Origin: Candidatus Micrarchaeota archaeon
GTDB taxonomy: Archaea; Micrarchaeota; Micrarchaeia; Norongarragalinales; SBBD01
Assembly: GCA_043803465.1 (NCBI GenBank)
Contig: JAZDKC010000074.1
Coordinates: 1-60,784 of the forward strand
Reading direction: 5' to 3'
DNA length: 60,784 nucleotides
Part shown: piece after piece, positions 3,455-58,903 of the stretch
How positions within the stretch are numbered: position 1 is the first letter of the stretch
Layout of the letters: the number at the start of each line of letters is the position of its first letter
Made by a program: the position numbers and the translations under genes
Notes under the pieces: model-generated
What the model was told of the DNA's origin: nothing
The model's database searches: none
What the model saw: only the letters and a program-made list of their open reading frames with translations

Positions 3455-3642
3455 AAATGCAAAATCAGGGGGGTAGGCGGCAAAACGAGTGGGGAACCGA
3501 AGGTGCCCCGGAGGTGTCGAGCACATTGATTTCAAGAAGTTTTAATTTACGCAAAACGGGGAGGGGAGAGGCGACACGAGTGGGGAACCGCAGGTGCCCC
3601 GGAGGTGTCGAGCACATTGATTTCAAGGGGGTATAAAAATGC
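3429..3642 (+). repeat. Tandem array with 91-bp period: two hairpin elements (3468-3518, 3558-3609) and three copies of the DP1 3' end
   Basis: AGCACATTGATTTCAAG at 3429, 3520 and 3611; 32-bp identity between 3429-3460 and 3611-3642. Confidence 0.92.
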
Positions 3643-22500: not shown

Positions 22501-25500
22501 AGGGAACAAAGGAAATTGTGATGTTCGCGAGGTTGGTGTTCCCGGTGTTTGTAATGGTAACTAGCGTGGTGTTCATTTGGCTGAGGTTGCCGGTAATATT
22601 GATCAGGGAAACGCTTGCTGATAGGGTATGGGTCGACTGCACTATTACCGAGGAAGAATTGGAAATGGTCATGTTGGTTTGATTGTTGTTCCGGTAGGAA
22701 GCATTCCAGGTAACGGTGTAGCTAGATACCGGGAGGTTCGGAACAGTCACATTGAATGTCGCATTGCAATGCGAGTATGTCGGAACCGATGCCCCGCAGG
22801 TTGTGGAAAGCTTGTCAATAGAGGCCATCTGGCCTTTGCTCAAGTATGAGATCAGGGGTTCGAACATCGTCGCATTGTTCCTGTTCGTAAGCGTGACATT
22901 GATCAGGAACCATGTGGGTGGCGAGACAGTTTTAGCTGAGGCAAGAAGGCTTCCACGCGTGATCGCCTCCTCGAATGAGGTTTCGTAGAGTACCGATGCG
23001 GGTTCGTAGAATGCGGAATTATTCGTTGCTGTGATATTGACGGAATAATTGCCGCCGATGAGCTCTGAAGCGAATATGAAGCCGACAGTGCAATTGCCGT
23101 CGATAGTGCTGCAGCTCTTTGCAAGCGAGTAAGCTGAATTCAGATTTGTAAGGTTGACCGTTATGTTTGAATTCAGACCGTACAACGCGGTTGCGTTTAT
23201 TTCATTGAGGAAAGCGGTGACGCTTCCATTCGAGCCGAAGGTGATGCGGTATTTCATGTACCTTGCAGGCGTGCCGTTCAATACGGATCCTGCGCTGTTA
23301 GTGAGGTTTTCAAATGTGGAATAGGTGACATTGTCCTGTGAAATTGCGGCCTCGATCAAAAGAGTTGAATTCTCAACAACCACCGAATCCCAGCCCACCT
23401 TCCAATGCGTTTGCGCATTTCCCGAATCGAACCCCCGCTCGAAGATGCCCGAATTGAAGAATTCGGTGTCAGCAGGAGAATCGGAGAAGTTGAGGCTGAT
23501 GTTGTTTGAGTTGATCGTGATGTTCGTCCCGTTGCCGTAATTGAAATCAGCTTCTGCGGAATCGATGGTCAGATTGCTCAGGTCAAGGGACGCAAAAATC
23601 GCGGTTATGTTGGCATTTCCGAACCTGTTGTAGAATTGGGCGCGAGGCTTGTAATTCAGGGCGGTATTTTCCCAGAGCTGAACCTGTAAAGTTCCGTTCT
23701 CACCCAAATTGCCGGTCGTGTCATTTACAATAATAGTATAATTGTGGATGCCCAGGGGCTGCCCGGTGACGTTGAGATAACAATTGTTTCCTGATCGGGC
23801 CATGGTGAGGTTCTGGGAGGAGCCGTTGAGCCAATAGAGGATGCAATTGTTCGGATTCATTTCCGTAAAAGTCGCATTGACATAAACCCAATCGTAGTGA
23901 ATTCTGGAATAGTTTTCAGGAGTGGGAAAGACGGCGGTAATTTCCGAAGGATTAATGGTGTCGATGAATGCGCTTCTTGCGGATGTCTGGTTGCTGTTGC
24001 CTGCCGAATCGTTCAGGAAAACATAATACGAATATGCCCCTTCTGCAAGGGAGGTTTTATTCAGGAAGCATGCGTGCGCGTTGCAGGTAAGTGGCTCTGC
24101 AATGCTGTTCCAATAGAGCAATGCGGTGTGGAGGTTTGCATCCGTGTAGGAAGTGTTCACGTAAATCCAATTCCTTGAGAGGTTGATTTCATCATCCGGG
24201 GTTGGCAGGATATAATCCACCATCGGGAAGGTCGTATCGATCGTAAGGTTGAAAGTGCCGTTCCCTCCAATGTTTCCGGAGGAATCGTTCGCAAAAACCG
24301 TGTAATTCCAGATCCCATCCGCATGGCCGGTTATGTTCAGGTAGCAATTGTTGCCGGTCATGCCTGCGGTGATGTTGTAAACCGAGGTGTTGGCCCATTG
24401 CACCCAGCAGTTGTAGGGGTTGATTTCCGTGAAAGTGTAATTTATGTAAACCCAGCTATAATTGAGGAAGGAGTTGTTGGCAGGCGTCGGATAGATCGTA
24501 TTGATATTTGCGGGCGGATTGCCATCCATGCTGATGTAGAAAGTTCCGTTTTGTGCGGAATTGGCTGAAGTATCATTAACGATAATAGTATAGTTCCAGT
24601 AGCCGTCAGGTTGATCGGTCACATTCAAATAGCAATTATTGTTGGACCGGGTCATGGTGAGGTTCATCAGGCTCCCGTTATTCCATTGCAAAACGCACGC
24701 ATTCGGGAAAAGTTCCGTGAAGGTCGCGTTAACATAGACCCAATTCCTATAGGTGAAAGAGAGGTTTGCGAGAGTGGGGGAAACCATTGCAATGTTGGAG
24801 GGCGCAAGAGTGTCAACTGTGACAGTAAATGTGCCGTTCTGCGCAATATTGCCAGCCGAATCATTTACAATAATAGTGTAATTCCAAACACCGTCAGGCT
24901 GGCTTGTTAGGTTCACATTGCAAGTGCCGTCCAATCTTGCCATCGAATAGTTCGCGATCGATCCATTGTAATATTGCAGGGTGCATGCGCCGGGGTTGGG
25001 CTCGTTGAAGCTTGCATTCACATAGACCCAGCCGTACCCCCAATGGGAATTGTTTGAAAGTGTGGGCGATTCGGTTTTTATGCTGGAAGGCGGCAGGGTA
25101 TCAACAGTAACGGTGAATGTGCCATTGTAGCCGAGGTTACCGGCAGAGTCGTTCACGAACAAGGTGTAATTCCAGTTGCCGTCGGTTTGGCCGGTGATGT
25201 TGAGGAAGCAATTGGAATTGCTTAACGTTGCGGTAAGGTTGTAGGTGCTGGTGTTTACCCATTGCACCCAGCAGTTGAATGCGTTTAATTCCGTAAAGGT
25301 GTAATTAGCATACACCCAATTCCTGCTCGTATTGCTGCTGTTTCCAAGAGTGGGCCCGATAGTTTGAATGCTTGATGGCCCGGTCGAATCCACCCTCACA
25401 GTGCGATTTGCTGCAGAGAAGTTGCTGCTGGAAGGGATAGCATTATCGTAGCATTGCACGTTCCATAAATAGTCTCCGTCCGCTGCAAATGTGTAGCTGA

Positions 25501-28500
25501 TGGTGTTTGCGGAGTTGTTCAAAATGGCGGATTGGTTGAGCTGCGTGTACTCGAACGTTCCGGTGGCGTTGGTCCAAATGCTGCAATTATTGTAACCGCC
25601 GTCATCAACTGGCGCGTATGAGAAGGTAACCGTTTTGCTGCTGCTCGCCTGCAGATCATTGGGCGAGTTAAGGGAAATAGAGGGTAGTGCATTAAGGTAC
25701 AATATTACTGATGAGCTAGTGTTTAGCACGGAACTGTTGCTTGCCCTGTAACTAAGCAAGCCTACTGTTTTGGTTGCACTCACATTGTACGGGATGTAAC
25801 AGTTGATTCCATCATCGCTGCCGGTGCAACCCGGAACGTAGGCAGCCTCGGCAACTTGATCATACTCCTGAAGGACCTGATTCGCAATTCTGCCGTTCGC
25901 ATCTGAAGTGCCGCTTCCCATTGATGCGCCGGTAACATTCGCTATGTTTACGGAAGCTGATTGCACGGGATTATTCGATTGATCCCTCACAATTACACCC
26001 ATGAACCAGAAAACGGTCATGTTGTTTCCGGCCGTGCCATTCTTGGTGGTGGAACGGTTGAATGCGGTGTTGATGAAATGGCTGCCGGTTGCGGAGTTGT
26101 TCATGTAAATGTCGCCGTAGGCAAGCGAGATGTTGCCAAACGAGCTGTTGGTGAAATTCGTGTAGGTGGCGTTGTTGAGGAAGAGGTTGTATTGCGTGCT
26201 GTTTGTCAGATTGACACCGTTGAAAGTCGCATTAACCGTATTATTCAGGAAGATGCCATTGGTGAAATTCAATATTCGGCAATTGTTCGCCCGGAAATCG
26301 CGGAAACCGTTGCTGGCAATTCCGTAGCTATCTGCTGATGCGTTGCCCGAAATTTTGTAGCCGTTGCAATCGAGCTGGATGTTGTCCGCACCGATAGTAT
26401 AGCAGGTGCCTCTCGTTGTGCTCACATCCGCACTGAGGGAAAGATCGGTTGTGATGGTGCCGCAGGGGGATAATGTAAGGGTCAGGAGCCTATAGGAGGA
26501 AATGTCAAAAAGCTGGGAAACGGGCAAATAAGGCGAAAGGGTCGCTGTCAGGTTGTAGGAATTATACGTGGTATTGGCCGTGTCGTTGCCCGTGAATTCC
26601 GTGACTGCCTGGGTCGTATTGTAGCCGGTTGCGCCCGTCAAGCCGGTATACTGGGGGACGCCGGATGTAGAATTCCGGATCGTGATGTTCGCACCGTTAG
26701 CAGGGCTGTTGTCCTCGAAGCCGACGAAAATATCCACATTCCACCTTACGGTAAGATTGTTGTTGCCGCTTCCCCATCCGTATTTCCGGTTAGTAATCGA
26801 TAGGTTCTGAAGGAGGTTGTTCTGCGAGTTGGCTTCGGAATAAACCGAGTAATTGTTGCCGGAAGCCGGCAGGTAATTGAAAACCGAATTGAAAGCGTTG
26901 TTGTTCGAGCTCCCAAGGAAGTGGAGGCCGATTACCAATCCCCCAGTCCCGTTGCTGTTGTTCACAATTCCATCAAAATAAGATGAATTTACCAGGGTAA
27001 AGTTTGTGGACAGAAGCTGCAGGCCGAACGCGGAGCCCCTGCCGCCAAGGGTGCTGCCGTTGCCGCCCACACCTGCAGAGGAATTGCTGAAATTCGAGTC
27101 AAGTATGGTCGTATTGAGTGAGGAGTTGGAAATGAATAATGTCGAATTTCCCGCGTCGCCCCCAATCCCATACAAATTCACTGCGCCGCCTTTTGCACCA
27201 TCCCCGCCTGAACCGGCAATTACCTTCGATATATTGAAGCTGTTGAACCAGATGCTGTCGGAGGAGTTCAGTGCTATGCCTATCGCCGAACCTCCCGCGC
27301 CTCCTGCAGCGCCATTGCCTGCAGGAATATCATTGGCCGCACTCCCCTTGCCGCCGAATATCCCGGTTACTGAGTTATTGCTGAAGGTGTTGTTGCGGGA
27401 TGAATCCAAAATAATTGCGAACGCCTTTCCCCCAGCGCCTCCGGTGTTCGATGCTGCCGTAGTCTGGAAAGGCGCGCCGCCGTTCCCGCCGGAAATATTC
27501 ACGATCCGGTTGCCGGAAAAGGTATTATTGGTACCATTGACCAGGAAAATCCCGATTGCGCCGCCGCCGTTCTTTCCCGGCCTGCTGGAATCCGTACCTA
27601 CGGGACCCCTACCGCCGATCACTGTGGAAATGGCGTTATTGGTTATGCTGGAGTTGGTCAGATTTAAAAAGTAAAATGCGGTCGCATTCAGGCCAAACGA
27701 TGAATAATTGCCTCCAAATTGGCTGCTTACATTGTTGGAGGTAATGTTCGAATTGCCGCTCCAGTCTACGAGGATCGAGTAATTCCCATTTGAAATGAAT
27801 TTGTTGCCCCGGATTAGAAGCGTGTTAGCGGATCCGTTCACGTAAATCCCGGCATTCGAGTTGTTGGTCAAGGTATTGTTTGAAAGGTTGGCGATGTGCG
27901 AACCCGGAAGGAGCTCGATTCCGTTTGAGAAATTGACGAGATGGCAATTGGTGATGTTGACCCCGGTTACGCCGTTCACGACAATTCCGGAGCCGTTCTG
28001 CTGAGTACCGGTAATATTGAAGTTGTTGCAGTTGAAATTGATGTTTGAGGCCGAGATGGTGTAGCACGTGCCATTCGATGCGATGCTTCCGGGCAGGGTT
28101 GTGGAGGCAGCGATCGTGCCGCAGGGGACGACCGGAAGCACCATCAAAATGGTCTTCGAATCGTTGATAGGAAGCAAAGTCGAATTCACGGCGCCGGAAT
28201 AGGCGACGGTGAAATTGTAGATGCCGTAACTCGTATTGGAGCTGCTGTTGCCAATGAATTCGTTGGCTTCCTGCCAGTCCGTGAGGCCGTTGGCATCCGT
28301 TAGCATGTTGGTGAAGTTTGTGGCGCCAAAAGAGGAGTTTGTCATGTTCACATTTGCATTGACTATTGCGGTGCCTGCAGTGCTTCGGACGTAAATTCGG
28401 ACGTAGTCCCGGATCGTGACATTCCCGTTCGAGAAGCCTATCCGGCTGCGGTTGAATGAATTGTTCAGGAGGATGTTCGTGGATTGGTTGATATTGGTGA

Positions 28501-31500
28501 TGTTGATATCGAAGCCCCGCGGGGAGAAGTAAAAGAGGTTGCCGATGAAATTGTTGTATTTGGTCAGGTTCCCATTGGAAACCGAAGTGGTTGTCAGGAA
28601 GAGATTGGAAATTGTGCTATTTCGGAAGGTGTTGTTCTCTATCGTGTTATTGTTGCAGCCGTTCGAACCCGAAAGGCAGGAGATCTGCAGCGCATAATAG
28701 GAATTGTTGTTGAAGGTATTGTTGTATATCCTCGAGAAATTGAGGTAGCCGCCTGAAGTCGAGGAAAGGTTGACACCGACAGTGTTGTTGTAAAAGAAGC
28801 TGGCGGAAATGTTGTGGAACTGGCCGTTGCGGAGCATGATCCCGTTTGTGGAATTTGAGACGTTGGAGCCCAGCATGGTGAAATTATTGGCATCGATTCC
28901 CTGGACGCCGTTCGTGAAGTTCGTTATCCTGCAATTCTTGACGGTCACGTTGGTCCTGGAGCCGACATCCACGCCGATGCCGCTCCCGTTGCCGGTCACG
29001 AAATAATTGTTGCAATCGATGGCGATATTGTCCGCATTCGCGGTGAAACAGGTGCCTTGTGCGTTCAGGCTTACAGTCAATGCCGTCGAAGTGGCAATCG
29101 AACCGCAGGTGATTATTGGGAGTACCACCAATACTTCGGCGGATTGGTTCGTGGGATAGGTGGTCCAGTTGGTAACCCCCGAATAATTTGCGGTGAAATT
29201 GTAATTGGCAAAAGAGGTGTTAATGGAATTATTACCGAAAAACTCCGTAACCGCAACCCAGGCAGTATAGCCGTTTGCGTCCGTAGGGAGATTGCGATGA
29301 TTTGATGCGCCGCTGCTCGTATTGGTTATGTTCGCATTTGCGCTCTCAATGCCGGCCAGATTCGAACCGGTCACATAAACCCTGAAATAATCCTGGATTG
29401 TGAAGTTGTTGATCCCGCTGGCATATAGCATATTGCTGCGGTTGAATGAATTGTTTATGAAGTAATTGTTCCAGGAACTGGCGAAAGTGATATCCGAGCC
29501 GGTTGGGGATGAAATGATTATGTTGTTTGTGAAATTGTTGAACATAGTGTATTCGGGATTGCCGGCAGGCCCGTTCAGATGGAATCCCTTTGAACTGCTA
29601 TTCCTCACCGTATTGTTGGCAATGGTGTTGTTCTGGGCCCTTCCGCCTACGGCGGTGAAAAATTCGATGCCATCGGAATTGTTATCAAAAATATTGTTTG
29701 CAATGGTGTTATTTACATTATTACCAACAAAACTGAACAGGCCCAGGCCATTCGAATTATTGTAAATCGAATTGTTGGTCACATTAGAAAATGCATTGTT
29801 TTGCAATAAGACCCCATAAGTGGAGTTCCAAATCGAATTATTGGCAATAGTAAGGTTATTCCCTTCGCTGTCGATCCCGCGGTCGAAGGAGGATATGTTG
29901 CAATTACGGATGGTTACGTTGGAGTAAGACGTAATATCCACGCCGTTTCCCGTGCCATCGCCCGATATGGCATGGCCGGCACAATCCAAAACAATATTGG
30001 AGGAAGTAACGGTAAAACAGGTGCCATTCGCGAAAAGCGGAACTGCCAAAGTCGCAGAATATCCGAGGTTGCCGCAGACTGTAACCGGGATGATGATCGG
30101 AACGGCCTGGGAATAGTTGATCATGCTTAAGGTCGAATTCGTATAGCCGTTCCAGGTTGCAGTAACATTGTAATATGAATAATTCGTGTTAACCGAGTAA
30201 CTACCGATGAATTCGTTCAGGGGCACATAGGCAGTCAAGCCATTGGCACCCGTTATTTGGTCCGTATAATTGATTGCGCCGAAACTCGAGTTGGTTATAT
30301 TGACAAAGGCAGACCCAAGGCTGACGCCATTAGAACTGGTGACATTCACCCGGACATAATTCTGCAAGGTCATGTTCCCGGAAGTGAAACCGAGCCTTGA
30401 GCGGGTGAATGAATTGTTGAGGAAGATATTGGTAGAGAAGTTTACATCAGAAATGTTGATGTCGCTGCCGATGCTCGCATTGTAAAAAATATTGTTGGTG
30501 AAATTATTATCCGCTATGAGTTCCGGGTAACTGGAATAGCCAAGCAAATACAAGCTGGTTGTGCTGCTGTTGCGGAAGGTATTGTTTATGAATGAATTAT
30601 TCTGTATGTAATAAAGGGACGTTATAAACAGCTTAATGCCGATGCTGTTGTTCTGGAAAGTATTCGAAAATAACTTGTTTGAGCGGGTCAATGTGCCAAC
30701 CAAGCTCCACGACCTGAAGGTAATCGCGTCGTCATTGCCTGAAAAGGAGTTGTTTGAAAAATTGGAATGCCCAAGGCCGTAGAAAAATACCCCGCGGGTG
30801 CTATTTATGAAGGTGGAATTGATTACGCTTAAATAAGTATTATCCGAGTTGCCACCCACAATGCCCGACGAGAGGTTGATGAAGCTCGAATTGATAATAG
30901 TGACATTGTGGGCAGCAAGCATGTTGACCCCCGCGCCTGTGCGCTGATTGTGGTCGAATACGCTCGAATTGATCAATGCGAAATAGGAGGATCCGATATC
31001 CACGCCATCCGAATTATTGTAGAAAGTAGAATATTCCAGCGTGAAATTGTCAGAGCTGCGGCCATAGATGCCGTCGGTGAAATTCGAAATGACGCAGTTC
31101 TTCACGACGACGTTGTCGAAACCGTTGAGGTCTATTGCGGCACCGGAGCCGCTGCCCATAATTTGCTTGCCCTTGCAGTCGATTGTAACGTCGTTCGCCT
31201 GCAATGTAAGGCAGGACCCCCTTGCATCAAGAATTCCGGTGCTCAAATTGAAATTGCTGGAGACGTTGCCGCACCAATCTACGGTCTCGTTGCTGAATTC
31301 CATGTAGGTGTCCGTCCGATTCCAGAAGAGCGCTATGTTCGCGCAATTCTTCTGGATGGTGCAAGTCCGGAAGCCTAGCCTTTCGCCTGGGTAAAGGGTG
31401 GCGTTTTCGCCCGGGCCCATGGTCATAGTTGCAAAGGCGCCTATGAAGGCCTTGTAACAATCAATTGTGGTATTCGTGCGGTTGATTTCATAAACCGAGC

Positions 31501-33223
31501 CGGTGCTATTGTATTTCAAAAGGCTAACGGTGAAATTTGAGGATTGCCCGGTAACACCCTCATTGCCCTTGAAGCCCAGGTAAATGTAAATTGTCCCATT
31601 CACCAGTTCTTTCTCCAAACCGGCACTTTGATTGAATTGGGGGGTAAACCAGGTTTCGTTGAAGCAGGTCAGGGTTGTTGCATTCGATACATGGGTCCAG
31701 GGGTCGTTATTGGGAGTAGTAACTTGCAAGCTCTTGTTCAGAGTGGCGACATCGCTTGTGGAATTAGACAGGAACCATCGGATTTGGGACGCCGTATTGT
31801 TCGCATATGCGACCGCGTCACCAAAGCGGAATTCGAGGCGATGCGGCCCGGATGTGCGGACGGCGCTTTCCTCCGAGCCCTCGAGTTCGCAGGAATAGTC
31901 TGCAATGAATGCGGAGGTGCCATTGAAACTCGCGCCGGCATCCGCTTCGCCGCACTTGATGAATTTGAACTCCAGGTCATGGTCGAAGGTGGTGTTGTCA
32001 ATTGCAGTTACCGTAAGGGGGGCGGAGCCGGTTGTCGTGAACCGCACGGTCCAGTTGCCTCCGACTGCAGGGAAGCTTTGGAGATTCAGGATCGTGATAT
32101 TCACGCCCGCATAGCCGGAGAAGTGGTCCACCTTGAAATTGATACGGCCATCGGTTTCGGCGAATGCCGCGTCGATCATTTCCCATTTTGCGCAGAGGTT
32201 GGATGCGGCGTCGTAATTGGTGCAGGAAACAATCCGTTCGGTCTTGGAATTTGCCGGGAGGGAAATTAAGGCCTCCTCGAATTCCAGCGAGTTCAGTCCG
32301 ATGAAATCGGTTGTAAAGTAGCCTATGATGTTCGCCCTTTCCGATTGGAAGATGTTTGCAAATTTGGAGGGGGGCTCGCCATTGATATGATCGAGGCTTG
32401 TTGGGTCCCTGAGCCCCAGAATTTCAATGGAGGATCCGTCAAATTCCCCGGAATTCGATTTTTTCCGTTTATCCGAGGCAATGGAGAGCCCGAGGTCATA
32501 AACGGTTTCGTTCGTGCCATTTACGTTTTTCACCCGTTTTTTAAGCGAGGTGAATTTCAATTTTTTCAGATGCTTGAATTTTTCCTTCAGGATCCCCAAT
32601 TCCGGAAGCTCGGCGATGCGGCCGGTTTCGTTCAGATCGGTTTCATTTAGGGAAGTCTGATTGAGGCCGGTCTGGTTGAAAAACGATTCATTCAAAAAGG
32701 TGTTGTTGGAAATAGTCCCATTAAGAATGGTTTCATCCATCAAGGTTTGATTCGCGATTGTATCGTTCGCAATGGTTTGATTTGTGATTGATTCGTTCAT
32801 CCCGGTTTGATTGAGGAATGTTGAATTGGAAATCGTTTCGTTTGCGTCGGTCTCGTTCAGGATCGTTTGATTGACAATCGAATCGTTCGCGCCCGTTTGG
32901 TTGGAAATCGTTTCATTCGGGGAAATGGGATCGCCCGGTTGGGTCTGATTTTCCGAGGTCTGATTGGTCGCATTCGCATCGGGGAAATCAGCGTTTAGCT
33001 CAAGCAGGCCGGAATCGGTGAAATTCGAAAGGTTCGAAAGGGTAAAATTGAAGTCGGTAAGGTTGAGGAATTCCGGTGCAATGCTTGCTGTCGGGTATGT
33101 AAGATTCGTGGAGTTGGAGCTCTCGTTTTGGATGGTTTGATTGATGCTGTCAATAGTGGTTAAAGAGAGAAGTGAAAGCAGGGCTAATGCGAACGGGGCG
33201 AATAAGTAGACCTTGCCGCGCAT
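16556..33223 (-). CDS. Giant (~5,555 aa) membrane-anchored surface protein: beta-helix and Ig-like repeats, TM helix, cytoplasmic HerA/FtsK-like (DUF87) ATPase
   Basis: Signal peptide; NxT/S-rich region; C..I....V..DC.G beta-helix repeats; ~97-aa repeats at ~23.7-25.4 kb; P/T linker; TM ~17800-17865; Walker A GATGSGKT (17612-17635); VLVFDPT; Walker B CVYDEVH; RKWGVGMLLISQ. Confidence 0.88.
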   Translation of the reverse strand: MRGKVYLFAPFALALLSLLSLTTIDSINQTIQNESSNSTNLTYPTASIAPEFLNLTDFNFTLSNLSNFTDSGLLELNADFPDANATNQTSENQTQPGDPISPNETISNQTGANDSIVNQTILNETDANETISNSTFLNQTGMNESITNQTIANDTIANQTLMDETILNGTISNNTFLNESFFNQTGLNQTSLNETDLNETGRIAELPELGILKEKFKHLKKLKFTSLKKRVKNVNGTNETVYDLGLSIASDKRKKSNSGEFDGSSIEILGLRDPTSLDHINGEPPSKFANIFQSERANIIGYFTTDFIGLNSLEFEEALISLPANSKTERIVSCTNYDAASNLCAKWEMIDAAFAETDGRINFKVDHFSGYAGVNITILNLQSFPAVGGNWTVRFTTTGSAPLTVTAIDNTTFDHDLEFKFIKCGEADAGASFNGTSAFIADYSCELEGSEESAVRTSGPHRLEFRFGDAVAYANNTASQIRWFLSNSTSDVATLNKSLQVTTPNNDPWTHVSNATTLTCFNETWFTPQFNQSAGLEKELVNGTIYIYLGFKGNEGVTGQSSNFTVSLLKYNSTGSVYEINRTNTTIDCYKAFIGAFATMTMGPGENATLYPGERLGFRTCTIQKNCANIALFWNRTDTYMEFSNETVDWCGNVSSNFNLSTGILDARGSCLTLQANDVTIDCKGKQIMGSGSGAAIDLNGFDNVVVKNCVISNFTDGIYGRSSDNFTLEYSTFYNNSDGVDIGSSYFALINSSVFDHNQRTGAGVNMLAAHNVTIINSSFINLSSGIVGGNSDNTYLSVINSTFINSTRGVFFYGLGHSNFSNNSFSGNDDAITFRSWSLVGTLTRSNKLFSNTFQNNSIGIKLFITSLYYIQNNSFINNTFRNSSTTSLYLLGYSSYPELIADNNFTNNIFYNASIGSDINISDVNFSTNIFLNNSFTRSRLGFTSGNMTLQNYVRVNVTSSNGVSLGSAFVNITNSSFGAINYTDQITGANGLTAYVPLNEFIGSYSVNTNYSYYNVTATWNGYTNSTLSMINYSQAVPIIIPVTVCGNLGYSATLAVPLFANGTCFTVTSSNIVLDCAGHAISGDGTGNGVDITSYSNVTIRNCNISSFDRGIDSEGNNLTIANNSIWNSTYGVLLQNNAFSNVTNNSIYNNSNGLGLFSFVGNNVNNTIANNIFDNNSDGIEFFTAVGGRAQNNTIANNTVRNSSSKGFHLNGPAGNPEYTMFNNFTNNIIISSPTGSDITFASSWNNYFINNSFNRSNMLYASGINNFTIQDYFRVYVTGSNLAGIESANANITNTSSGASNHRNLPTDANGYTAWVAVTEFFGNNSINTSFANYNFTANYSGVTNWTTYPTNQSAEVLVVLPIITCGSIATSTALTVSLNAQGTCFTANADNIAIDCNNYFVTGNGSGIGVDVGSRTNVTVKNCRITNFTNGVQGIDANNFTMLGSNVSNSTNGIMLRNGQFHNISASFFYNNTVGVNLSSTSGGYLNFSRIYNNTFNNNSYYALQISCLSGSNGCNNNTIENNTFRNSTISNLFLTTTSVSNGNLTKYNNFIGNLFYFSPRGFDINITNINQSTNILLNNSFNRSRIGFSNGNVTIRDYVRIYVRSTAGTAIVNANVNMTNSSFGATNFTNMLTDANGLTDWQEANEFIGNSSSNTSYGIYNFTVAYSGAVNSTLLPINDSKTILMVLPVVPCGTIAASTTLPGSIASNGTCYTISASNINFNCNNFNITGTQQNGSGIVVNGVTGVNITNCHLVNFSNGIELLPGSHIANLSNNTLTNNSNAGIYVNGSANTLLIRGNKFISNGNYSILVDWSGNSNITSNNVSSQFGGNYSSFGLNATAFYFLNLTNSSITNNAISTVIGGRGPVGTDSSRPGKNGGGAIGIFLVNGTNNTFSGNRIVNISGGNGGAPFQTTAASNTGGAGGKAFAIILDSSRNNTFSNNSVTGIFGGKGSAANDIPAGNGAAGGAGGSAIGIALNSSDSIWFNSFNISKVIAGSGGDGAKGGAVNLYGIGGDAGNSTLFISNSSLNTTILDSNFSNSSAGVGGNGSTLGGRGSAFGLQLLSTNFTLVNSSYFDGIVNNSNGTGGLVIGLHFLGSSNNNAFNSVFNYLPASGNNYSVYSEANSQNNLLQNLSITNRKYGWGSGNNNLTVRWNVDIFVGFEDNSPANGANITIRNSTSGVPQYTGLTGATGYNTTQAVTEFTGNDTANTTYNSYNLTATLSPYLPVSQLFDISSYRLLTLTLSPCGTITTDLSLSADVSTTRGTCYTIGADNIQLDCNGYKISGNASADSYGIASNGFRDFRANNCRILNFTNGIFLNNTVNATFNGVNLTNSTQYNLFLNNATYTNFTNSSFGNISLAYGDIYMNNSATGSHFINTAFNRSTTKNGTAGNNMTVFWFMGVIVRDQSNNPVQSASVNIANVTGASMGSGTSDANGRIANQVLQEYDQVAEAAYVPGCTGSDDGINCYIPYNVSATKTVGLLSYRASNSSVLNTSSSVILYLNALPSISLNSPNDLQASSSKTVTFSYAPVDDGGYNNCSIWTNATGTFEYTQLNQSAILNNSANTISYTFAADGDYLWNVQCYDNAIPSSSNFSAANRTVRVDSTGPSSIQTIGPTLGNSSNTSRNWVYANYTFTELNAFNCWVQWVNTSTYNLTATLSNSNCFLNITGQTDGNWNYTLFVNDSAGNLGYNGTFTVTVDTLPPSSIKTESPTLSNNSHWGYGWVYVNASFNEPNPGACTLQYYNGSIANYSMARLDGTCNVNLTSQPDGVWNYTIIVNDSAGNIAQNGTFTVTVDTLAPSNIAMVSPTLANLSFTYRNWVYVNATFTELFPNACVLQWNNGSLMNLTMTRSNNNCYLNVTDQPDGYWNYTIIVNDTSANSAQNGTFYISMDGNPPANINTIYPTPANNSFLNYSWVYINYTFTEINPYNCWVQWANTSVYNITAGMTGNNCYLNITGHADGIWNYTVFANDSSGNIGGNGTFNLTIDTTFPMVDYILPTPDDEINLSRNWIYVNTSYTDANLHTALLYWNSIAEPLTCNAHACFLNKTSLAEGAYSYYVFLNDSAGNSNQTSARSAFIDTINPSEITAVFPTPENYSRIHYDWVYVNATFTEMNPNNCILYWLNGSSQNLTMARSGNNCYLNVTGQPLGIHNYTIIVNDTTGNLGENGTLQVQLWENTALNYKPRAQFYNRFGNANITAIFASLDLSNLTIDSAEADFNYGNGTNITINSNNISLNFSDSPADTEFFNSGIFERGFDSGNAQTHWKVGWDSVVVENSTLLIEAAISQDNVTYSTFENLTNSAGSVLNGTPARYMKYRITFGSNGSVTAFLNEINATALYGLNSNITVNLTNLNSAYSLAKSCSTIDGNCTVGFIFASELIGGNYSVNITATNNSAFYEPASVLYETSFEEAITRGSLLASAKTVSPPTWFLINVTLTNRNNATMFEPLISYLSKGQMASIDKLSTTCGASVPTYSHCNATFNVTVPNLPVSSYTVTWNASYRNNNQTNMTISNSSSVIVQSTHTLSASVSLINITGNLSQMNTTLVTITNTGNTNLANITISFVPSTMDGAWITFDPYDFGGLFPNMNFDLDVMIQALAPFTPGVYTGKVNITADDLINGPNTTATSIDIMVISEPQVTATPTVLIADQNLTSNPTLAANISNPGNAPVTNVSVTLENSTIPDGWISFDSIDPAWDSLTNSWTSITEGTEAVLQIIVTILDFIEGVFSAIIKIVSDEGVATYVNVTVNVTPRLDAVSTINLTIQHGFANATEFYINSTGNVKLVNLMISYNETTLPGSWLAFNTTFIENITEFVNYSVQFNVTVPFGTPPGNYSGQINISGYNANRTIGISVEVPENATWYFLPFGDQYKEFGLAESGAIGTITINNTGNANLSFDIGYGDFGGRASCIGGDPYFQDLCTQAVVPSNPTLLNATKNTTTSFTISKVAAGFSNNSDGYALQITMANNSGVPTSNSTVLYFNITNAFPQFRLAATYVNTAQRPYVEYNQTVTLNVTATDDESYGLNPSTAIFNISRPDGTNETYNALNLTLNPFTACGGTCQDAQSYNLAYNATNMSGRFNVTFQVQDALSQQNMTSFYFTVITITNLTLSGNGSNITNAQRNINSTLLLNLSANNTGLVSAYSINLSGMFARQAGAADTLSNWSFNAIPTIPYINGTLQNLTTFNITVGQRSLGIYYFTPNATWAQPNGTIEVIWGPNLTINITSNPDFNVTASNQSLAIPHGFNQTEWFSITPVGNDNITNYTISLSTNYANFSVTFNHTSGNLTLDGLANVSMNISVVYGANSGFRNFTVNVTGGNYSKSFVVNLTVPFNNTWAANTNLFTLDGIAGENSLDNRTLIAHYGTGDAFLNFTFNLTGNMTDFSNLVNTSKYLNTTQSYDIGINYTAPDNNYLYVGCLNITEKNSSSYQLVNITFRSFTVELSVVNITAPLQVIAGDIINESVLLIFGGQNTTSNTTWSMFLNSTQCPLLSNTTFDNESRLACTAPALLDAVYYDLTVRANYSTGSSYLVKNTTNSGYIFYKDITPPQIIAEYSNDTERYENITLSINATDNLALANATVQVTFPNLTAANYTLLYNPGTNLFANQFNLTALGYYSLVYFVNDTTGNMNYSSAGSFEIYETRIFSGTISNLEGNPIVVNFTVRNTSESNYEAFSTNSSGTYNKSLRAKWYELNLKFLFYNVTADRVDFNTINQSLLSLDNFSGSDISSQILGAKAGFAVISNMPTNGTLIIEYADLLATITDETLLRIYNCHNYTYASRSCVESWSQMQNTSLNTIGNTINGTISAFANTTVAYALVQYTVPTPTPTTLPPYNPPSGGSVGSTGGYTPPQPPAASPTPIPAPTDNVSKQIEELKKLLQENKTKDMGLEPGVQSIVFELYPGESSQTSVHIKNTLNATSKINVTLVGVIRDFITASSKQISLNRMHETDLMIFATIPDKAKTGNYYGELQLQNEVGKISIPVTVRVLDRKEERSLDLRLQPLVDTIDPGETLRVEVNIYNLAEASEIKGIFHLEAVDPVTDSVLEQTQEEEITLQNTYNSIKPIKIPSDAHTGRLVIRGVFDYSVGETLKKRDVTAIAYVRVQTSFWSNKLFGMISIWQFIPLLLILLATIFTYYRQYSVTKSKRRYVAKVDFTKLPEPGLRAGFLGLIAETKVRSFAAIDKLQMHTLIAGATGSGKTVAAQVIVEEALQKNTAVLVFDPTAQWTGFLRAQKNRDMLLNYRRFGMNTDEAKAFKGNIYVVRDPNMAIDIKKLMKPGEITVFVMNKLSFADHETFISNTVKQVFAAGLPESPQLKLLCVYDEVHRLLPKFGGRGEGFIQIERGAREYRKWGVGMLLISQVLSDFVGEIKANIGTEIQMRTKYEGDLERLKLKYGEDSARSIVKESIGSGMVQNSEYNNGQPYFVSFRPLLHNVVRLSDTELSQYETYNDKVEKLEADMEQLRQEGHDVLDLELEINLARDKVKKGAFNIVEIYLDSLSQKIESMRKKSGQKPSPRIDMLDFGIGDILGEKKADEAAGKDAKTDAEKKDIA

Positions 33224-39799: not shown

Positions 39800-39842
39800 T
39801 TGATTTCGGATTTATTAGAGATATTTAATTTTAGGAACCCTT

Positions 39843-39886
39843 GACACCTAGGGAATACGAATCCCCCATCGTGTCGCCTTGCCCCC
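39843..39886 (-). repeat. Hairpin element after the phosphoesterase stop
   Basis: GGGGGCAAGGCGACACGATGGGGGATTCGTATTCCCTAGGTGTC, followed by a copy of the gene 3' end (39815-39842). Confidence 0.9.
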
Positions 39887-39888
39887 TC

Positions 39889-40677
39889 TTAGAGATATTT
39901 TATCTTTGGAAACTCCTTGACGCCGCCTTCCTCATCGATCACTGTTGGAACGAATTCATCGATGTTGCAATCCTTTAGGATCGGCGACACCAGATCGTTG
40001 TCATAATGGCCGGAAACAAGGTCCGTGCCAGATGCAAGCGGGGATAAGGAGGGGAGTACCAGCAGCTCCTTCCGGTTGAATTCGCCCCTAAGCGCGCAAT
40101 TGTATTTATGGGGCACATTTATCTCATCGCGCAGCGAAACAGCGGGGTGCACATGCCCGATCACAAGGGTTTTGTATTCCTTGAATTCCGGAATATCGCC
40201 GTATTCCTCCAATTTCTTGTGCCCGTGGACGAATAACACGCCCTTTTCGAAAAAATAGTCGTGCATTTTCAGGTTCTGGTTGCGCAATATCTTTTGCACG
40301 TAATTGTCATGGTTTCCGCGCACCAAAATCAGCTCGATTTCCCGCTTCTTGAAAAAATTAAGCAATTGCAGCACTTCATCCCATTCCTGCTGCAGCGGCT
40401 TTGAGAATTCGTGCTTGAGATCGCCGTTGATCAGGACGCGTTTTGCCTTGGTTCCCTTGAGCATCGCCTCAAGCCGTTCAATAATTATCGGGAATTGGGG
40501 GGCAGGCACCTCGATGCCGATATTATGAAGCACCGCCTCATGCCCCATCTGAATGTCGGAAACCGCAAGCAGCCCAAGCTCTTCGAAATAAACCCCGCTT
40601 TCCTTGAGGACCTTGATTTTTGCACCTTCCCTTTTTTTGAAGAAATTATCGATTCGAGAGCGCATATCCATTTTCAA
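39889..40677 (-). CDS. Lhr-associated metallophosphoesterase
   Basis: SDIQMG, NGDLKH, RGNHD, VHGH, GHVHP; downstream of lhr. Confidence 0.88.
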   Translation of the reverse strand: MKMDMRSRIDNFFKKREGAKIKVLKESGVYFEELGLLAVSDIQMGHEAVLHNIGIEVPAPQFPIIIERLEAMLKGTKAKRVLINGDLKHEFSKPLQQEWDEVLQLLNFFKKREIELILVRGNHDNYVQKILRNQNLKMHDYFFEKGVLFVHGHKKLEEYGDIPEFKEYKTLVIGHVHPAVSLRDEINVPHKYNCALRGEFNRKELLVLPSLSPLASGTDLVSGHYDNDLVSPILKDCNIDEFVPTVIDEEGGVKEFPKIKYL

Positions 40678-44912: not shown

Positions 44913-45168
44913 GCAACGCCTCCGGGGGACCGGTTGCCCCTACTCGTGTTGCCCCTACCCCTTCTGATTTTGAATACCTTTATAACCGGCAACTCCCAAA
45001 ACAATAACGCAGTCTTCCAGATAGCCGGGGAGCTAAGGGATTCGACACCCACAGGGGAATGGCTTCCCCTCCACGTGTCGCCGCCACCCCTTCCGATTTT
45101 GAATACATTTATAACCGGCAACTCCCAAAACAATAACGCAGTCTTCCAGATAGCCGGGGAGCTAAGGG
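44913..45168 (-). repeat. 129-bp period duplication: two hairpin elements (44913-44961, 45044-45090) plus a duplicated SRP promoter/5' end
   Basis: 83-bp repeats at 44957-45039 and 45086-45168, 2 mismatches. Confidence 0.92.
45108..45114 (+). promoter_or_regulatory. TATA box of the SRP RNA gene (duplicated at 44979)
   Basis: TTTATAA ~24 nt upstream of the predicted RNA 5' end. Confidence 0.7.
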
Positions 45169-55166: not shown

Positions 55167-55379
55167 TTCACGGAATGGCGGATGTGCCAGGCGGACCCGG
55201 CTTCCGGAACCGGATTTTCAAAAATCGGCCCACTGTTTGACAATTTCTCCGTCGCAATACGGAAAAAAAATAAAATATCGGAACCGATATGGGGAAAAAT
55301 TTTACGAGAGAGGATTATGGATTTTCAGGAAAAACCGCCATTTTCGGTTTTTTTTACGAGCGCCGCAAAAAGCTTTATA

Positions 55380-55459
55380 TATCCATCTATAGTATGTACT
55401 GCAGGTTTGAAATACAACCTATAGTATCCGAAGAGGCGCAAAATACCAACATTTAGTAC
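55380..55459. promoter_or_regulatory. Three NrdR-box-like operators with 32-bp spacing
   Basis: TATCCATCTATAGTAT 55380, ATACAACCTATAGTAT 55412, TACCAACATTTAGTAC 55444. Confidence 0.75.
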
Positions 55460-55488
55460 CCCTTACGCCTTTTTTTGCGGTGGTTAGA

Positions 55489-55959
55489 ATGCGATGCCCG
55501 TACTGCACACATATGGAAACGAAGGTTCTCGATTCAAGGGATGCGGAGGACCTGGCGGTTACAAGGCGCAGAAGGGAGTGCGAAAAGTGTGAGAAGCGTT
55601 TCACAACATATGAGCGGGTGGAATTCCTGGACTTGGTTGTCAGGAAGAAGGATGGCAAGACCGAGCCCTTTGACCGAAAGAAGATTGAAACGGGAATGCT
55701 CAAGGCGTGCGAGAAGCGGCCAATAAGCCGGGAGAAGATCGAGGAGCTCGTGGATGAGATGGAGCGCGACATCCGCAAGAAGGAGGGCACAGAGATCCCA
55801 ACACAGGAGATTGGGGAGCTTGTTATAGAGAAGCTCAAGAAGCTCGACAAGGTCGCATACATCAGGTTCGCAAGCGTGTACCGTGAATTCACGGACCTGA
55901 ATGAGTTTGAATCGGAAATGAAGAAATTGCTCAAGAAGAGCGAAAGAGTGGAGAAATGA
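55489..55959 (+). CDS. nrdR: Transcriptional repressor NrdR
   Basis: MRCPYC..TKVLDSR..RRRECEKCEKRFTTYE, ATP cone, VAYIRFASVYREF. Confidence 0.95.
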   Translation: MRCPYCTHMETKVLDSRDAEDLAVTRRRRECEKCEKRFTTYERVEFLDLVVRKKDGKTEPFDRKKIETGMLKACEKRPISREKIEELVDEMERDIRKKEGTEIPTQEIGELVIEKLKKLDKVAYIRFASVYREFTDLNEFESEMKKLLKKSERVEK

Positions 55960-56081
55960 AATGGCAAATATGAAGGGGTAAGGCGACACGATAGGGGAAA
56001 CGTAGTTGCCCCTCAGGTGTCATGAAGAAATTGCTCAAGAAGAGCGAAAGAGTGGAGAAATGAAATGGCAAATATGAAGGG
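55918..56081 (+). repeat. Perfect 60-bp duplication of the nrdR 3' end around a hairpin element (55975-56021)
   Basis: 55918-55977 = 56022-56081; element GGGGTAAGGCGACACGATAGGGGAAACGTAGTTGCCCCTCAGGTGTC. Confidence 0.93.
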
Positions 56082-56182
56082 ATTCGTTGGAGTTCAGGCA
56101 TTTTGCAGCGGAAATTGGGGGCCAGGTCCATGTTAATAAATACAATAATTCAGCAAATTCACGCACAGGGGGGTGATATTGC

Positions 56183-58903
56183 ATGCCGGAGAAAAAGATT
56201 GTTTATTTCAACGTACCCGCAGGTGGAAATGACATGAGTGGAAACGGAAGCAGCACCATCATAAAAATCAAGAAGCGGGACGGAAGGATTGTGGCATTCG
56301 AAAAGGACATGATCACCATCGCAATTTGGAAGGCTGCGAAGGCAGTCGGAGGGAAGGACAAGGCGCTTGCAATTGCGCTGACGGACACGGTGATAGACCA
56401 GCTTGAAAAGCAATTCAGGAACGGGGAGGTGCCCGAAGTCGAGGATGTGCAGGATATTGTAGAAAAAGTGCTGATCGAGGGCGGGTATGCGAAAACCGCG
56501 AAGGCGTACATCCTCTACAGGCAGCAGCGCGCCGAATTGAGGGAGGAAAAGAAGCGCGTGCTCGACAAGGAGGAAATCGACGAGGTCGACAAGAAATTCG
56601 ACCTGAATGCGCTTAGGGTTTTGAAGGCGAGGTATCTGCGGAAAAATGACGAGGGCAAATTGATTGAAACACCAAAGCAGCTATTTACGAGAGTTGCGAT
56701 CCACACCACATTGCCCAACCTGTTCTATGATCCGCGTGTGTTCGATTTGAAAGCAGGCCAAAAGGAGCAGCAAAACGAGGACTTCGACGCCGCATCCTAT
56801 GATGATAAATTCTCAATTGGCAAATACCCCCTGAACCGATACCACCTGGAGGGCTTGAAACGCATTTACAATAGGATGAACAGGCAGCACACGATGCGGA
56901 TGCCGCTAAGCAAATTCATGGAGATGGCGGGGAAGGGCGAGTTCAATAATTACGAAAAGGAAATCGACCTGAATTACGATTTGATGGTCAGCAAGAAATT
57001 CATGCCCAACACTCCCGCAATAGCGAATTTCGGCAATTCCCTGGGGATGGGCTCAGCATGCTTTGTAATCGGAGTCGATGACTCCATTGAAAGCATCATG
57101 GAAGGCCTGAAAAACACCGCCATTGTCTTCAAATCGGGCGGGGGGATGGGCTACAACTTCTCGAAACTCCGGCCGGAGGGCGATTTCGTCAGCACAACTT
57201 CAGGAATTGCAAGCGGGCCAATCAGCTTCATGCGCCTTTTTGACACGATGACCGAAGTGATCAAGCAGGGCGGGATCCGCAGGGGCGCAAACATGGGCAT
57301 CCTCAACAGCAACCATCCGGATATTGAAAAGTTCGTGAAGGCAAAAGAGGGCAACAAGGCGCTTAGGAATTTCAACATTTCAGTGCTGCTCATGCCCGAT
57401 TTCTGGGAATACTATGAGAAGGATGAGCCGTATCCGCTGGTTAACCCAAGGACCAAGGAAGTTGTGCGCACAGTGAACCCGCGCAGATTGTTCGACATGA
57501 TCGTTTATCAGGCCTGGGAATCGGCTGAGCCGGGGGTAATTTTCTATGACGCGGTCAACAAGTACAACCCCTTCCACGAGCATCTTGGGCCGATAGTCGC
57601 AACCAACCCGTGCGGCGAGGTGCTGCTTTACCCGTACGAATCATGCAATCTTGGAAGCATCAACGTGTGGGCATTTGCAAAGGAGGACGAGAATGGGAAG
57701 GCTTATTTCGATTGGGAAGGGTTGAAGGAAACAGTGACGCAAACAACCGAGTTCCTCGACAATGTAATGGATGTGAGCAGGCACCCGCTGCCGCAATTTG
57801 AGGAAATGACCCTCGCAACAAGGAAGGTGGGGCTTGGCCTTATGGGATTTGGCGATTTGCTTTTTGAGCTGCGCATCCCATACAACTCGGAGGAGGGCCG
57901 CAATTTTGCGGAAAAGCTGATGGAATTCATCAACTACTGGAGCAAATTCAAGAGCATCGAGCTTGCAAAGGAAAGGGGCGCATTGCCCTTCTACAGCAAG
58001 AGCTTCTACCCCCAAGGAAAGCTGCCGCTTGCAGGCGCGTATTTCCACAATAAGCAGCTTGACTGGAATAAAATTTCCGAGGATGTGAAAAAATACGGGA
58101 TCCGGAACGGATTCACAACAGTAATCGCGCCGACCGGAAGCATATCAATGATTGCAGGCTGCAGCTCCGGGATCGAGCCCATTTATTCGCTCGTATTCGA
58201 GAAGAATGTAAAGGTCGGATCCTTCTACTATGTTGACGGCGCATTTGAGAAGGCAATGAAGGATGAAGGCCTATACGATGAGAAATTGATGGCCGAAGTT
58301 AACGAGAATGGCGGCACCGTGCAAACCATCGCATACATCACGCCCTCCCTGAAAAGGGTATTCGTGACGGCAATGGACATCAAGCCGGAAGACCACATCC
58401 GCATGCTCGCTGCTTTCCAGAGATGGACCGATTCATCGATCAGCAAAACGAACAACTTCCCGGCTGACGCCACAGTGGATGACATGCGCGAGAGCTACCT
58501 GCTTGCATACAAGCTCGGATGCAAGGATGTGACAGTTTTCAGGGACTCTTCAATCAAGGACCAAGTGCTTGTCGCGCCTGCGAAAAAGGCGGTGCCGCAG
58601 CAGCAGAACGCGGATGCGGAACGCCGCAACACCCCCTCAAGCAAGCCCCAAACAATTGATTCCGCAATCTCTCCGGCAATCACACCCGAATCATTATTGC
58701 AAAAACATGAGACAACCATGAAGGTGATGGCGCAAAGTAACATTGCGGCTGCAGCGTTTGCGGCGCAGAACGCGCCGTTTGCAGACGTGCAGTTCGGGGA
58801 CAAGGGCATAAAGGAATGCCCCGCGTGCGGCTCCGAGCAGCTGGCCAAGAAGGAAGGATGCCTTAATTGCAGTGAGTGCGGCTGGGGCTATTGCTCGGCT
58901 TAA
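56183..58903 (+). CDS. nrdJ: Class II (AdoCbl-dependent) ribonucleotide reductase with ATP cone and C-terminal Zn ribbon
   Basis: ATP cone, PNTP, SACFV, RRGANM, TNPCGE, APTGSIS, SISKT, CPAC..CSECG. Confidence 0.93.
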   Translation: MPEKKIVYFNVPAGGNDMSGNGSSTIIKIKKRDGRIVAFEKDMITIAIWKAAKAVGGKDKALAIALTDTVIDQLEKQFRNGEVPEVEDVQDIVEKVLIEGGYAKTAKAYILYRQQRAELREEKKRVLDKEEIDEVDKKFDLNALRVLKARYLRKNDEGKLIETPKQLFTRVAIHTTLPNLFYDPRVFDLKAGQKEQQNEDFDAASYDDKFSIGKYPLNRYHLEGLKRIYNRMNRQHTMRMPLSKFMEMAGKGEFNNYEKEIDLNYDLMVSKKFMPNTPAIANFGNSLGMGSACFVIGVDDSIESIMEGLKNTAIVFKSGGGMGYNFSKLRPEGDFVSTTSGIASGPISFMRLFDTMTEVIKQGGIRRGANMGILNSNHPDIEKFVKAKEGNKALRNFNISVLLMPDFWEYYEKDEPYPLVNPRTKEVVRTVNPRRLFDMIVYQAWESAEPGVIFYDAVNKYNPFHEHLGPIVATNPCGEVLLYPYESCNLGSINVWAFAKEDENGKAYFDWEGLKETVTQTTEFLDNVMDVSRHPLPQFEEMTLATRKVGLGLMGFGDLLFELRIPYNSEEGRNFAEKLMEFINYWSKFKSIELAKERGALPFYSKSFYPQGKLPLAGAYFHNKQLDWNKISEDVKKYGIRNGFTTVIAPTGSISMIAGCSSGIEPIYSLVFEKNVKVGSFYYVDGAFEKAMKDEGLYDEKLMAEVNENGGTVQTIAYITPSLKRVFVTAMDIKPEDHIRMLAAFQRWTDSSISKTNNFPADATVDDMRESYLLAYKLGCKDVTVFRDSSIKDQVLVAPAKKAVPQQQNADAERRNTPSSKPQTIDSAISPAITPESLLQKHETTMKVMAQSNIAAAAFAAQNAPFADVQFGDKGIKECPACGSEQLAKKEGCLNCSECGWGYCSA

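Follow-up and report, generated by a model that had tools for sequence, protein, structure and literature searches.

The window analyzed here, a stretch of 60,784 nucleotides, lies on contig C74 of a Micrarchaeota genome (G000) that comprises 1.4 Mb in 91 contigs and is 90.7% complete. An intact nrdR gene on its plus strand (55489-55959; 156 aa) was identified from the list of open reading frames and from Pfam matches to Zn_ribbon_NrdR (2.2e-19) and ATP-cone (2.2e-26); its stop codon is TGA at 55957-55959. The closest relatives of this NrdR among named records belong to Candidatus Norongarragalinales and Micrarchaeota MAGs, and neither a 27-mer from the gene end nor a 26-mer from its interior has an exact match in the scanned metagenome contigs. 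Downstream on the same strand is a gene for the large subunit of ribonucleotide reductase (56183-58903; 906 aa), which contains the Pfam domains Ribonuc_red_lgC, ATP-cone, and Ribonuc_red_lgN.

Between these genes, the end of nrdR is present twice. A repeat search of the window identified identical 60-mers at 55918-55977 and 56022-56081 on the plus strand (100% identity, starts 104 nt apart), confirming to the nucleotide a perfect duplication that an earlier note on this DNA had described. By an arithmetic estimate, about 1e-27 exact repeats of this length are expected in a sequence of 60.8 kb, and the pair is not due to chance. Each copy consists of the last 13 nrdR codons, the stop codon TGA, and 18 nt of spacer. 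The shared ending ...CAAATATGAAGGG continues into GTAAGGCGACAC, part of the inserted element, in the upstream copy and into ATTCGTTGG, the native spacer, in the downstream copy. The latter is a relic of the nrdR tail, made up of 42 nt of gene end, including a second TGA at 56061-56063, and 18 nt of spacer; the reductase gene begins 120 nt past this second stop codon. The relic begins between two codons, its first triplet being the in-frame ATG of residue M144, and is preceded by AGGTG. Relic tails, such as this 13-codon fragment starting with ATG, may be miscalled as small genes.

The two copies are separated by a 44-nt insert (55978-56021, plus strand) that occurs once in the window, allowing for up to 3 mismatches. 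It is a copy of a hairpin element (covariance model, 59.3 bits, E 1.1e-12), and the model match (55971-56021) takes in the preceding G-tract; the proposal of an element insertion flanked by the duplicated nrdR end is thereby borne out. A two-tier hairpin is predicted by DNA folding at 55985-56021 on the plus strand (-9.1 kcal/mol, z -2.9). In the predicted fold, the outer stem pairs GACAC (55985-55989) with GTGTC (56017-56021), and the inner stem pairs 55993-56001 with 56005-56013, with one A.G mismatch, around a GTA loop at 56002-56004. The hexamer GAAGGG, which ends both repeats, is also found at the start of the 5' arm (GAAGGGGTAAGG) in four further members of the subfamily, in agreement with the earlier observation that the duplication runs into the G-tract of the element. 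Because this hexamer belongs to both the repeat end and the 5' arm, the left junction at nrdR lies within a 6-nt overlap.

A promoter and terminator scan of 55300-56300 found no candidates with its consensus patterns, which are exclusively of bacterial type. By eye, the spacer that leads from the relic nrdR tail to the reductase gene contains a AATAAATACA box at 56133-56142, as does the G005 spacer (locus L003). This box may serve the reductase gene as a TATA-like box of its own, in which case the insertion may leave reductase expression undisturbed. Upstream of nrdR, CTATAGTAT is present twice (55387-55427, copies 32 nt apart), in a position and at a spacing that we take to resemble those of paired NrdR boxes. 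If the two copies are such boxes, nrdR would be self-regulated.

A family of hairpin elements in one lineage of Micrarchaeota

Places matching a loose pattern of the insert ends number 31 in the 1.4-Mb genome. Twenty-five aligned copies share a common plan: a G-tract; TAGRG, TGGCG, or TAAG; GCGACAC; three unpaired nucleotides; an 8-bp stem; three to four unpaired nucleotides; and GGTGTC. The outer stem GACAC/GTGTC is invariant across these copies, while the sequence of the 8-bp stem changes from copy to copy, and compensatory changes are found in 7 of the 13 consensus pairs. The core of the element (G-tract, TAGRG, GCGACAC, variable stem-loop, and GGTGTY) spans 45-51 nt. A longer form of about 69 nt has the 5' extension TAATTCGCA-N-AAATTAAGG, and the longest forms (about 95-130 nt) contain one or two additional hairpins. 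The element lacks terminal inverted repeats, and its palindrome is internal. The heptamer ATTCGCA was rejected as a general spacer motif, with 397 occurrences compared to 98-433 for shuffled heptamers; it is part of the long element form.

A covariance model built from the 25-copy alignment was used to search G000 at E<=0.01 and identified 65 matches, six of them inside the window: 3468-3518, 3559-3609, and 55971-56021 on the plus strand and 39843-39889, 44915-44964, and 45044-45093 on the minus strand. Near-identical copies at unrelated loci define subfamilies. At the gathering threshold, the only match of Rfam 15 in the window is to tRNA, with none for the element, and permissive Rfam searches with the element gave chance-level matches (best 21.4 bits, compared to a cut-off of 63). 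The elements lie preferentially at gene ends: a co-oriented open reading frame stops within -60 to +25 nt at 31 of the 57 best copies (17.6% of random sites), and an opposite-strand frame stops near the element 3' end at 25 of these 57 (18.2% of random sites).

Model matches are present in all ten other genomes of the same taxonomic family (4 to 54 each, E<=1e-4), and of 30 genomes that represent other families in the order, one has a single weak match. On these sequence searches, the element family appears to be confined to one family of Micrarchaeota.

Gene-end duplications are a trait of the family

The 200 nt behind each of the 65 matches in G000 were aligned to the 350 nt before it, and a flank repeat was counted where the score was at least 24 and the start lay within 6 nt of the element 3' end. 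Flank repeats are present at 29 of the 65 copies, compared to 6 of 2,000 random sites. They range from 20 to 94 nt in length and from 78% to 100% in identity, and this genome-wide table upholds the earlier statement that duplication lengths vary, unlike the fixed duplications of DDE transposases. In the congeners G003, G005, and G006, repeats were identified at 31 of 73 loci. Six of the 29 duplications in G000 are perfect, the nrdR pair being the longest of them, as are 8 of the 31 in the congeners (14 of 60 overall). The nrdR element had also been described as the youngest insertion and as a sign of recent activity. This view is not supported by the six perfect duplications among 29 or by the closest sibling of the element in its own genome, which is only 84% identical; since copies in another species (G005) reach 90%, there is no sign of a recent burst.

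A few of the repeats span gene starts, and the downstream copy is then the working one (C6:15034 and C59:25093). Tandem arrays of the order repeat-element-repeat-element also occur. Such an array is found in the window at 3429-3642, where a 32-nt gene tail is followed by the element at 3468-3518, a tail copy at 3520-3551, a second element at 3559-3609, and a further tail copy at 3611-3642. The outer tail copies are identical (32/32) and the middle one is 69% identical; the last copy contains an SD-like GGGGGT together with the start codon (ATG) of the gene that follows. On the minus strand at 44915-45168, the elements 45044-45093 and 44915-44964 are arranged in tandem, each behind a repeat unit of 83-124 nt, on the 5' side of a 587-codon open frame. 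These units are identical at 81 of 83 positions over their aligned part. Also on the minus strand, the element at 39843-39889 is located within a duplication (39815-39911) of 23 nt of the upstream gene tail (PKIKYL*), with three differences, all synonymous. Separately, many families of diverged direct repeats are present at 20000-33000, including a 117-nt unit that occurs five times at 23670-25214 (four at 288-nt spacing), which suggests very large repeat-domain genes.

The two junctions of the element differ in character. The right junction is sharp: when tabulated across four genomes, as the earlier note had advised, it reads GGTGTC or GGTGTT followed by a purine in 59 of 60 cases. The left junction is loose, lying anywhere between positions -57 and +12 as counted from the model start.

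Presence and absence between genomes

The hairpin is absent behind nrdR in G001, G004, G005, and G006, and the nrdR tail is single in these genomes. In G003, the long form has inserted independently behind nrdR, and the repeat there spans 39 nt, with six differences that are all synonymous by eye. The relic tail there is followed by AATGGCAAA...TATGA. The earlier suggestion that a CAAA-n-GGG motif may be a pre-existing target signal holds in part: the G003 orthologue keeps this sequence behind its own nrdR tail, and because it resembles the spacer of G000, a portion of the motif is native spacer.

Thirty of the relatives' 73 loci could be placed syntenically in G000, and no model match is present at 23 of these 30. 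At 12 duplicated loci of relatives, G000 has a single copy that is colinear with the relative's downstream copy and its flank. Some gene ends are occupied in several species. The end of a zinc-ribbon gene contains an element in four of seven congeners; the subtypes differ, and the repeat starts at the same codon in three of them. Different subtypes at the same gene end across species fit repeated targeting better than simple allele transfer. At two places in G000 (C62:10837-10917 and C73:7811-7848), only a G-tract and a TGGAG- or TAAG-like stretch follow the stop codon, and relatives have a full element with a duplication there. A hairpin once present may have been lost there, with these stretches as its footprints.

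Repeat copies diverge like alleles of functional genes

Where the two copies of a gene end differ, the differences are predominantly synonymous. Within the repeats of G000, 31 codon differences are synonymous and 10 are non-synonymous (open reading frames of at least 60 aa, some of them doubtful); within those of the relatives, the counts are 37 and 4 (frames of at least 100 aa). The combined fraction (68 of 82) compares to an expected 0.40 if one copy were constrained and the other neutral (p=1.7e-15). A 61-nt pair in G003 (L126) contains 14 differences, with 11 of 12 changed codons synonymous. The zinc-ribbon gene shows two-step codon changes (AGA to CGG and TTG to CTT) and a swap of the stop codon from TGA to TAA in G006 and G005. 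The downstream copy in G006 has been shifted out of phase with the element by a 5-nt deletion, and its differences are still synonymous and it retains species-specific residues. Because diverged duplications differ almost exclusively at synonymous positions, a simple duplication of a target on the same molecule followed by decay would not account for them. The copies differ like alleles of functional genes, suggesting that at least one of them was imported or overwritten through homologous recombination with a diverged lineage; judged from these sequences, at least one copy in each diverged pair is derived from a functional allele of another lineage. The nrdR copies in G000 are identical and have no differences that bear on a donor, and the event there is therefore either recent or took place between the same or nearly identical strains.

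Taken with the flank repeats and the junctions, this pattern leads us to prefer repair-mediated insertion, one of the routes that the earlier note had raised. We consider it about evenly balanced, between right and wrong, that this is a small, non-coding, non-autonomous hairpin element at which gene ends become duplicated by DNA-level recombination or repair, accompanied by the exchange of diverged alleles. The mobility itself, the order of events, and the route through DNA repair are what we infer. The invariant 3' end of the element (GGTGTY, then a purine) would be joined to the host gene 20-94 nt farther upstream, and its G-rich 5' arm would be joined at or just behind the stop codon, at nrdR through the 6-nt overlap GAAGGG. 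Where the copies differ, one or both would have been overwritten or imported by homologous recombination with a diverged lineage. The outcome at nrdR would be an intact gene, an element in the spacer, and a useless second gene end behind it, and neither reverse transcription nor a fixed staggered cut would be the source of the duplication.

Alternatively, a cassette of gene tail plus element could move into the corresponding gene of a different strain or species, with homologous recombination on the left and a join at the element 3' end on the right, a miniature of integrative elements that supply a replacement gene end. In this case, the upstream copy would be the new arrival, and the downstream copy would be what was displaced, the native tail. 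This reading has an appreciable, though clearly a minority, chance of being correct. It accounts for the synonymous-only divergence and for the two-step codon changes and stop swap at the zinc-ribbon gene (G000, G005, and G006), and it is consistent with the occupation of the same gene ends in several species (nrdR in G000 and G003; the zinc-ribbon gene in four of seven congeners). It also fits a mosaic pair in G003 (L145), whose copies are identical for the first 42 nt and only about 60% identical over the remainder. The downstream tail of that pair (KKMEEVRKKYG*) matches the type seen in the nearest relatives of G003 and runs on into native flank. The upstream tail (RKLAEISKKYAQ...) matches the type of a different clade; it no longer has a stop codon of its own and ends in the element's 5' extension, so that both the tail and the element-derived extension upstream are of foreign type. 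However, elements at the same locus are of different subtypes between species, one of them with a different junction, and at 10 loci the single orthologous copy in G000 is about as distant from the upstream copy as from the downstream one. The two nrdR copies are identical, no integrase match (PF00589) was found in G000, and the first copy at any new locus would be left unexplained.

Search for a mobility enzyme

Apart from one gene, the transposase, recombinase, and integrase families searched for have no clear representative in G000. There are no matches to Y1_Tnp (PF01797; the control search was positive in 6 of 14 known genomes), TnpB (PF07282), rve, or IS110, and DUF559 is represented by a single borderline domain of 20.6 bits inside a 1274-codon frame. 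Among tyrosine recombinases, Phage_integrase (PF00589) also has no match in G000, while the control was positive in 14 of 14 genomes; an Xer-type recombinase may be missing from G000 or may be unassembled. Among 889 open reading frames within 2 kb of elements, no recombinase-like family recurs. The sole recurrent family there has seven members, which are putative PEP-utilising mobile-domain proteins on the reading of a C-terminal motif. Since G000 is 90.7% complete and in 91 contigs, a partner enzyme may be unassembled, or it may be supplied by the host or a virus.

The exception is a gene with a DDE_Tnp_1 domain (PF01609; C17:8789-10021, minus strand). Members of the IS1634 family generate long and variable target duplications, and a transposase of this kind acting in trans with widely and variably staggered cuts could have produced true target-site duplications that later became unequal through recombination with other alleles. 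The length and variability of the repeats, the 14 perfect duplications among 60, and the presence of this gene in G000 are all in its favor, and yet we regard this origin as unlikely, with a small but real chance of being right. DDE_Tnp_1 was found in only 7 of 11 genomes that contain the element, and in 9 of 30 that do not. The element-bearing genomes with no such match include G002, an assembly of 7 contigs (91% complete) in which the element model has 16 matches. The TTTATGTGCA repeats that flank the transposase gene have no relation to the element, of which one copy (8725-8773) is itself inserted among them (C17:8600-10100). Further, the element has no terminal inverted repeats, and the codon phase of the junction described below would be unexplained.

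Codon phase of the junction and remaining explanations

In 27 of 36 cases (12 of 16 in G000 and 15 of 20 in relatives), the junction between the element and the downstream copy falls between two codons of the host gene. This fraction departs from a null of 1/3 (p=3.8e-7), from a null of 0.385 that allows for the purine (p=9.5e-6), and from nulls of 0.5 (p=0.002) and 0.55 (p=0.011), the last corresponding to a junction that always requires R-W-G. The distance from the upstream to the downstream start has no preference modulo 3 (10, 16, and 10 cases for remainders 0, 1, and 2). The possibility that the element and downstream copy together form a small gene was rejected, as an in-frame start (ATG, GTG, or TTG) in the stretch from the last in-frame stop to the downstream copy is lacking at 39 of 60 junctions; it is also contradicted by the zinc-ribbon copy of G006, which is out of phase and still differs synonymously.

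A blind route of DNA repair does not predict a codon-phased junction. Because 27 of 36 junctions lie on a codon boundary while the distance between copies has no such preference, we also put forward a translation-linked step, in which the gene tail would be copied from, or cut at, the ribosome-phased end of an mRNA. This could take the form of RNA-templated break repair or of ligation of an element RNA to a co-translationally cleaved mRNA. We think such a step quite unlikely to be the explanation.

It is improbable that the hairpin is a non-mobile signal of the host (a 3'-end, processing, or protein-binding site in RNA or DNA) whose repeats arose by slippage or break repair at a fragile structure. 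The position just behind stop codons (31 of 57 copies, compared to 17.6% of random sites), the strong structural covariation, and the tandem repeat-element arrays would be expected of such a signal. However, the element differs in presence between species at 23 of 30 syntenic places, subfamilies of near-identical copies are located at unrelated loci, there is no Rfam match, and a local origin would not give allele-like divergence.

Target-primed reverse transcription of a SINE-like RNA, a mechanism proposed in the earlier note, could produce a fixed 3' end with a variable 5' extent (-57 to +12) and variable duplication lengths, although the size classes could equally be subfamilies. The search for reverse transcriptases does not support it: RVT_1 (PF00078) was not found in any of the 11 element-bearing genomes, including assemblies of only 7 and 8 contigs, and the two of 30 other genomes that have RVT_1 lack the element. 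With no 3' tail on the element either, we consider this mechanism very improbable. That reads or strain variants were joined around the hairpin by a metagenome assembler is suggested by the fragmented state of the G000 bin (91 contigs), and is extremely improbable given that the same architecture is found at 60 loci in four separately assembled genomes, the repeats are direct rather than inverted, and the downstream copy is colinear with native flank.

Comparison with known systems

None of the known systems compared here matches all features of the element. Integrative elements that supply a replacement gene end, such as e14 in icd of Escherichia coli and islands that target tRNA genes, are kilobases in size and use a tyrosine integrase at a defined crossover site, and their gene copies differ mainly at synonymous positions. 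The present element resembles them in that the host gene is whole, a second 3' end flanks the insert, and the direct repeats diverge mainly at synonymous sites, and differs in that G000 has no integrase match, there is no cargo (44 nt between the nrdR repeats), and repeat length varies by locus. REP and REPIN sequences are short extragenic palindromes with a GTAG-containing 5' part, which are associated with RAYT (Y1 HUH) transposases and are not known to make flank duplications. The hairpin shares with these the GTAG-containing conserved 5' part, the dozens of copies, and the location behind gene ends, but G000 has no Y1_Tnp match and the element has flank duplications.

Unlike a classical MITE, the element has no terminal inverted repeats matching a parent IS, and its repeats of 20-94 nt are not a short duplication of fixed length. 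It is unlike an IS1634-type derivative in that the DDE transposase domain was found in only 7 of 11 element-bearing genomes, unlike elements derived from IS200/IS605-TnpB (PATE, omega RNA) in that G000 has no TnpA or TnpB match and flank repeats are present, and unlike a non-LTR or SINE-like retroelement in that no RVT_1 was found in the 11 genomes with the element. Among archaea, the palindromic elements MJRE1-3 of Methanocaldococcus jannaschii, reportedly described by Suyama, Lathe and Bork in 2005, are similar small palindromic repeats in another phylum, a likeness drawn from description only. Palindromic YPAL/RU-2 elements of Yersinia are said to have been the subject of work by De Gregorio et al. 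in 2006.

As summarized by Delihas 2008 (PMC2229807), YPAL/RU-2 is a small non-autonomous palindromic repeat of 168 bp without TA ends, with target duplications of 3-26 bp and with filled and empty sites between species. It differs from the element here, in a comparison by description only, in being bacterial and in its shorter duplications, and gene-tail copies with synonymous divergence are not among the features given in that summary (PMC2229807).

Insertion with long target duplication, as outlined by Furuta et al. 2010 (PMC2853133; see also Nobusato et al. 2000, reference 37 therein), is accompanied by direct repeats of 30 to >400 bp that are single in the empty genome; the inserts are described as having no transposase or integrase, and the repeats often overlap gene 3' ends. 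The nrdR locus shares with the system outlined there a repeat of more than 30 bp, an insert with no mobility gene, and a single copy in empty genomes (nrdR of G001, G004, G005, and G006). The insert of that system, according to the same outline, is a kilobase-scale restriction-modification gene unit present once, whereas the element here is a non-coding hairpin of 45-130 nt with about 60 copies per genome, an invariant 3' junction, and allele-like divergence of its repeats. In the portions of the literature covered, on Micrarchaeota repeats, M. jannaschii palindromes, and long target duplication, this element family is not described, and it is apparently new.

Implications

Small palindromic repeats are common, and how most of them move is obscure. 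With about 60 junctions per genome, the present family imposes three constraints on a mechanism: an invariant 3' junction followed by a purine, variable gene-end copies that diverge like alleles, and codon phase. The recombinase and reverse-transcriptase families searched for were not found in the genome of the window, except for one DDE gene whose distribution is uncorrelated with that of the element. If the codon phase reflects the mechanism, it would indicate a route of DNA change that involves translation, and a translation-linked route, if true, would be a form of mobility or gene conversion that needs neither a reverse-transcriptase gene nor a transposase. If the duplications record recombination between diverged lineages, these elements would be natural markers of gene flow in DPANN archaea, in which DNA exchange is otherwise hard to detect.
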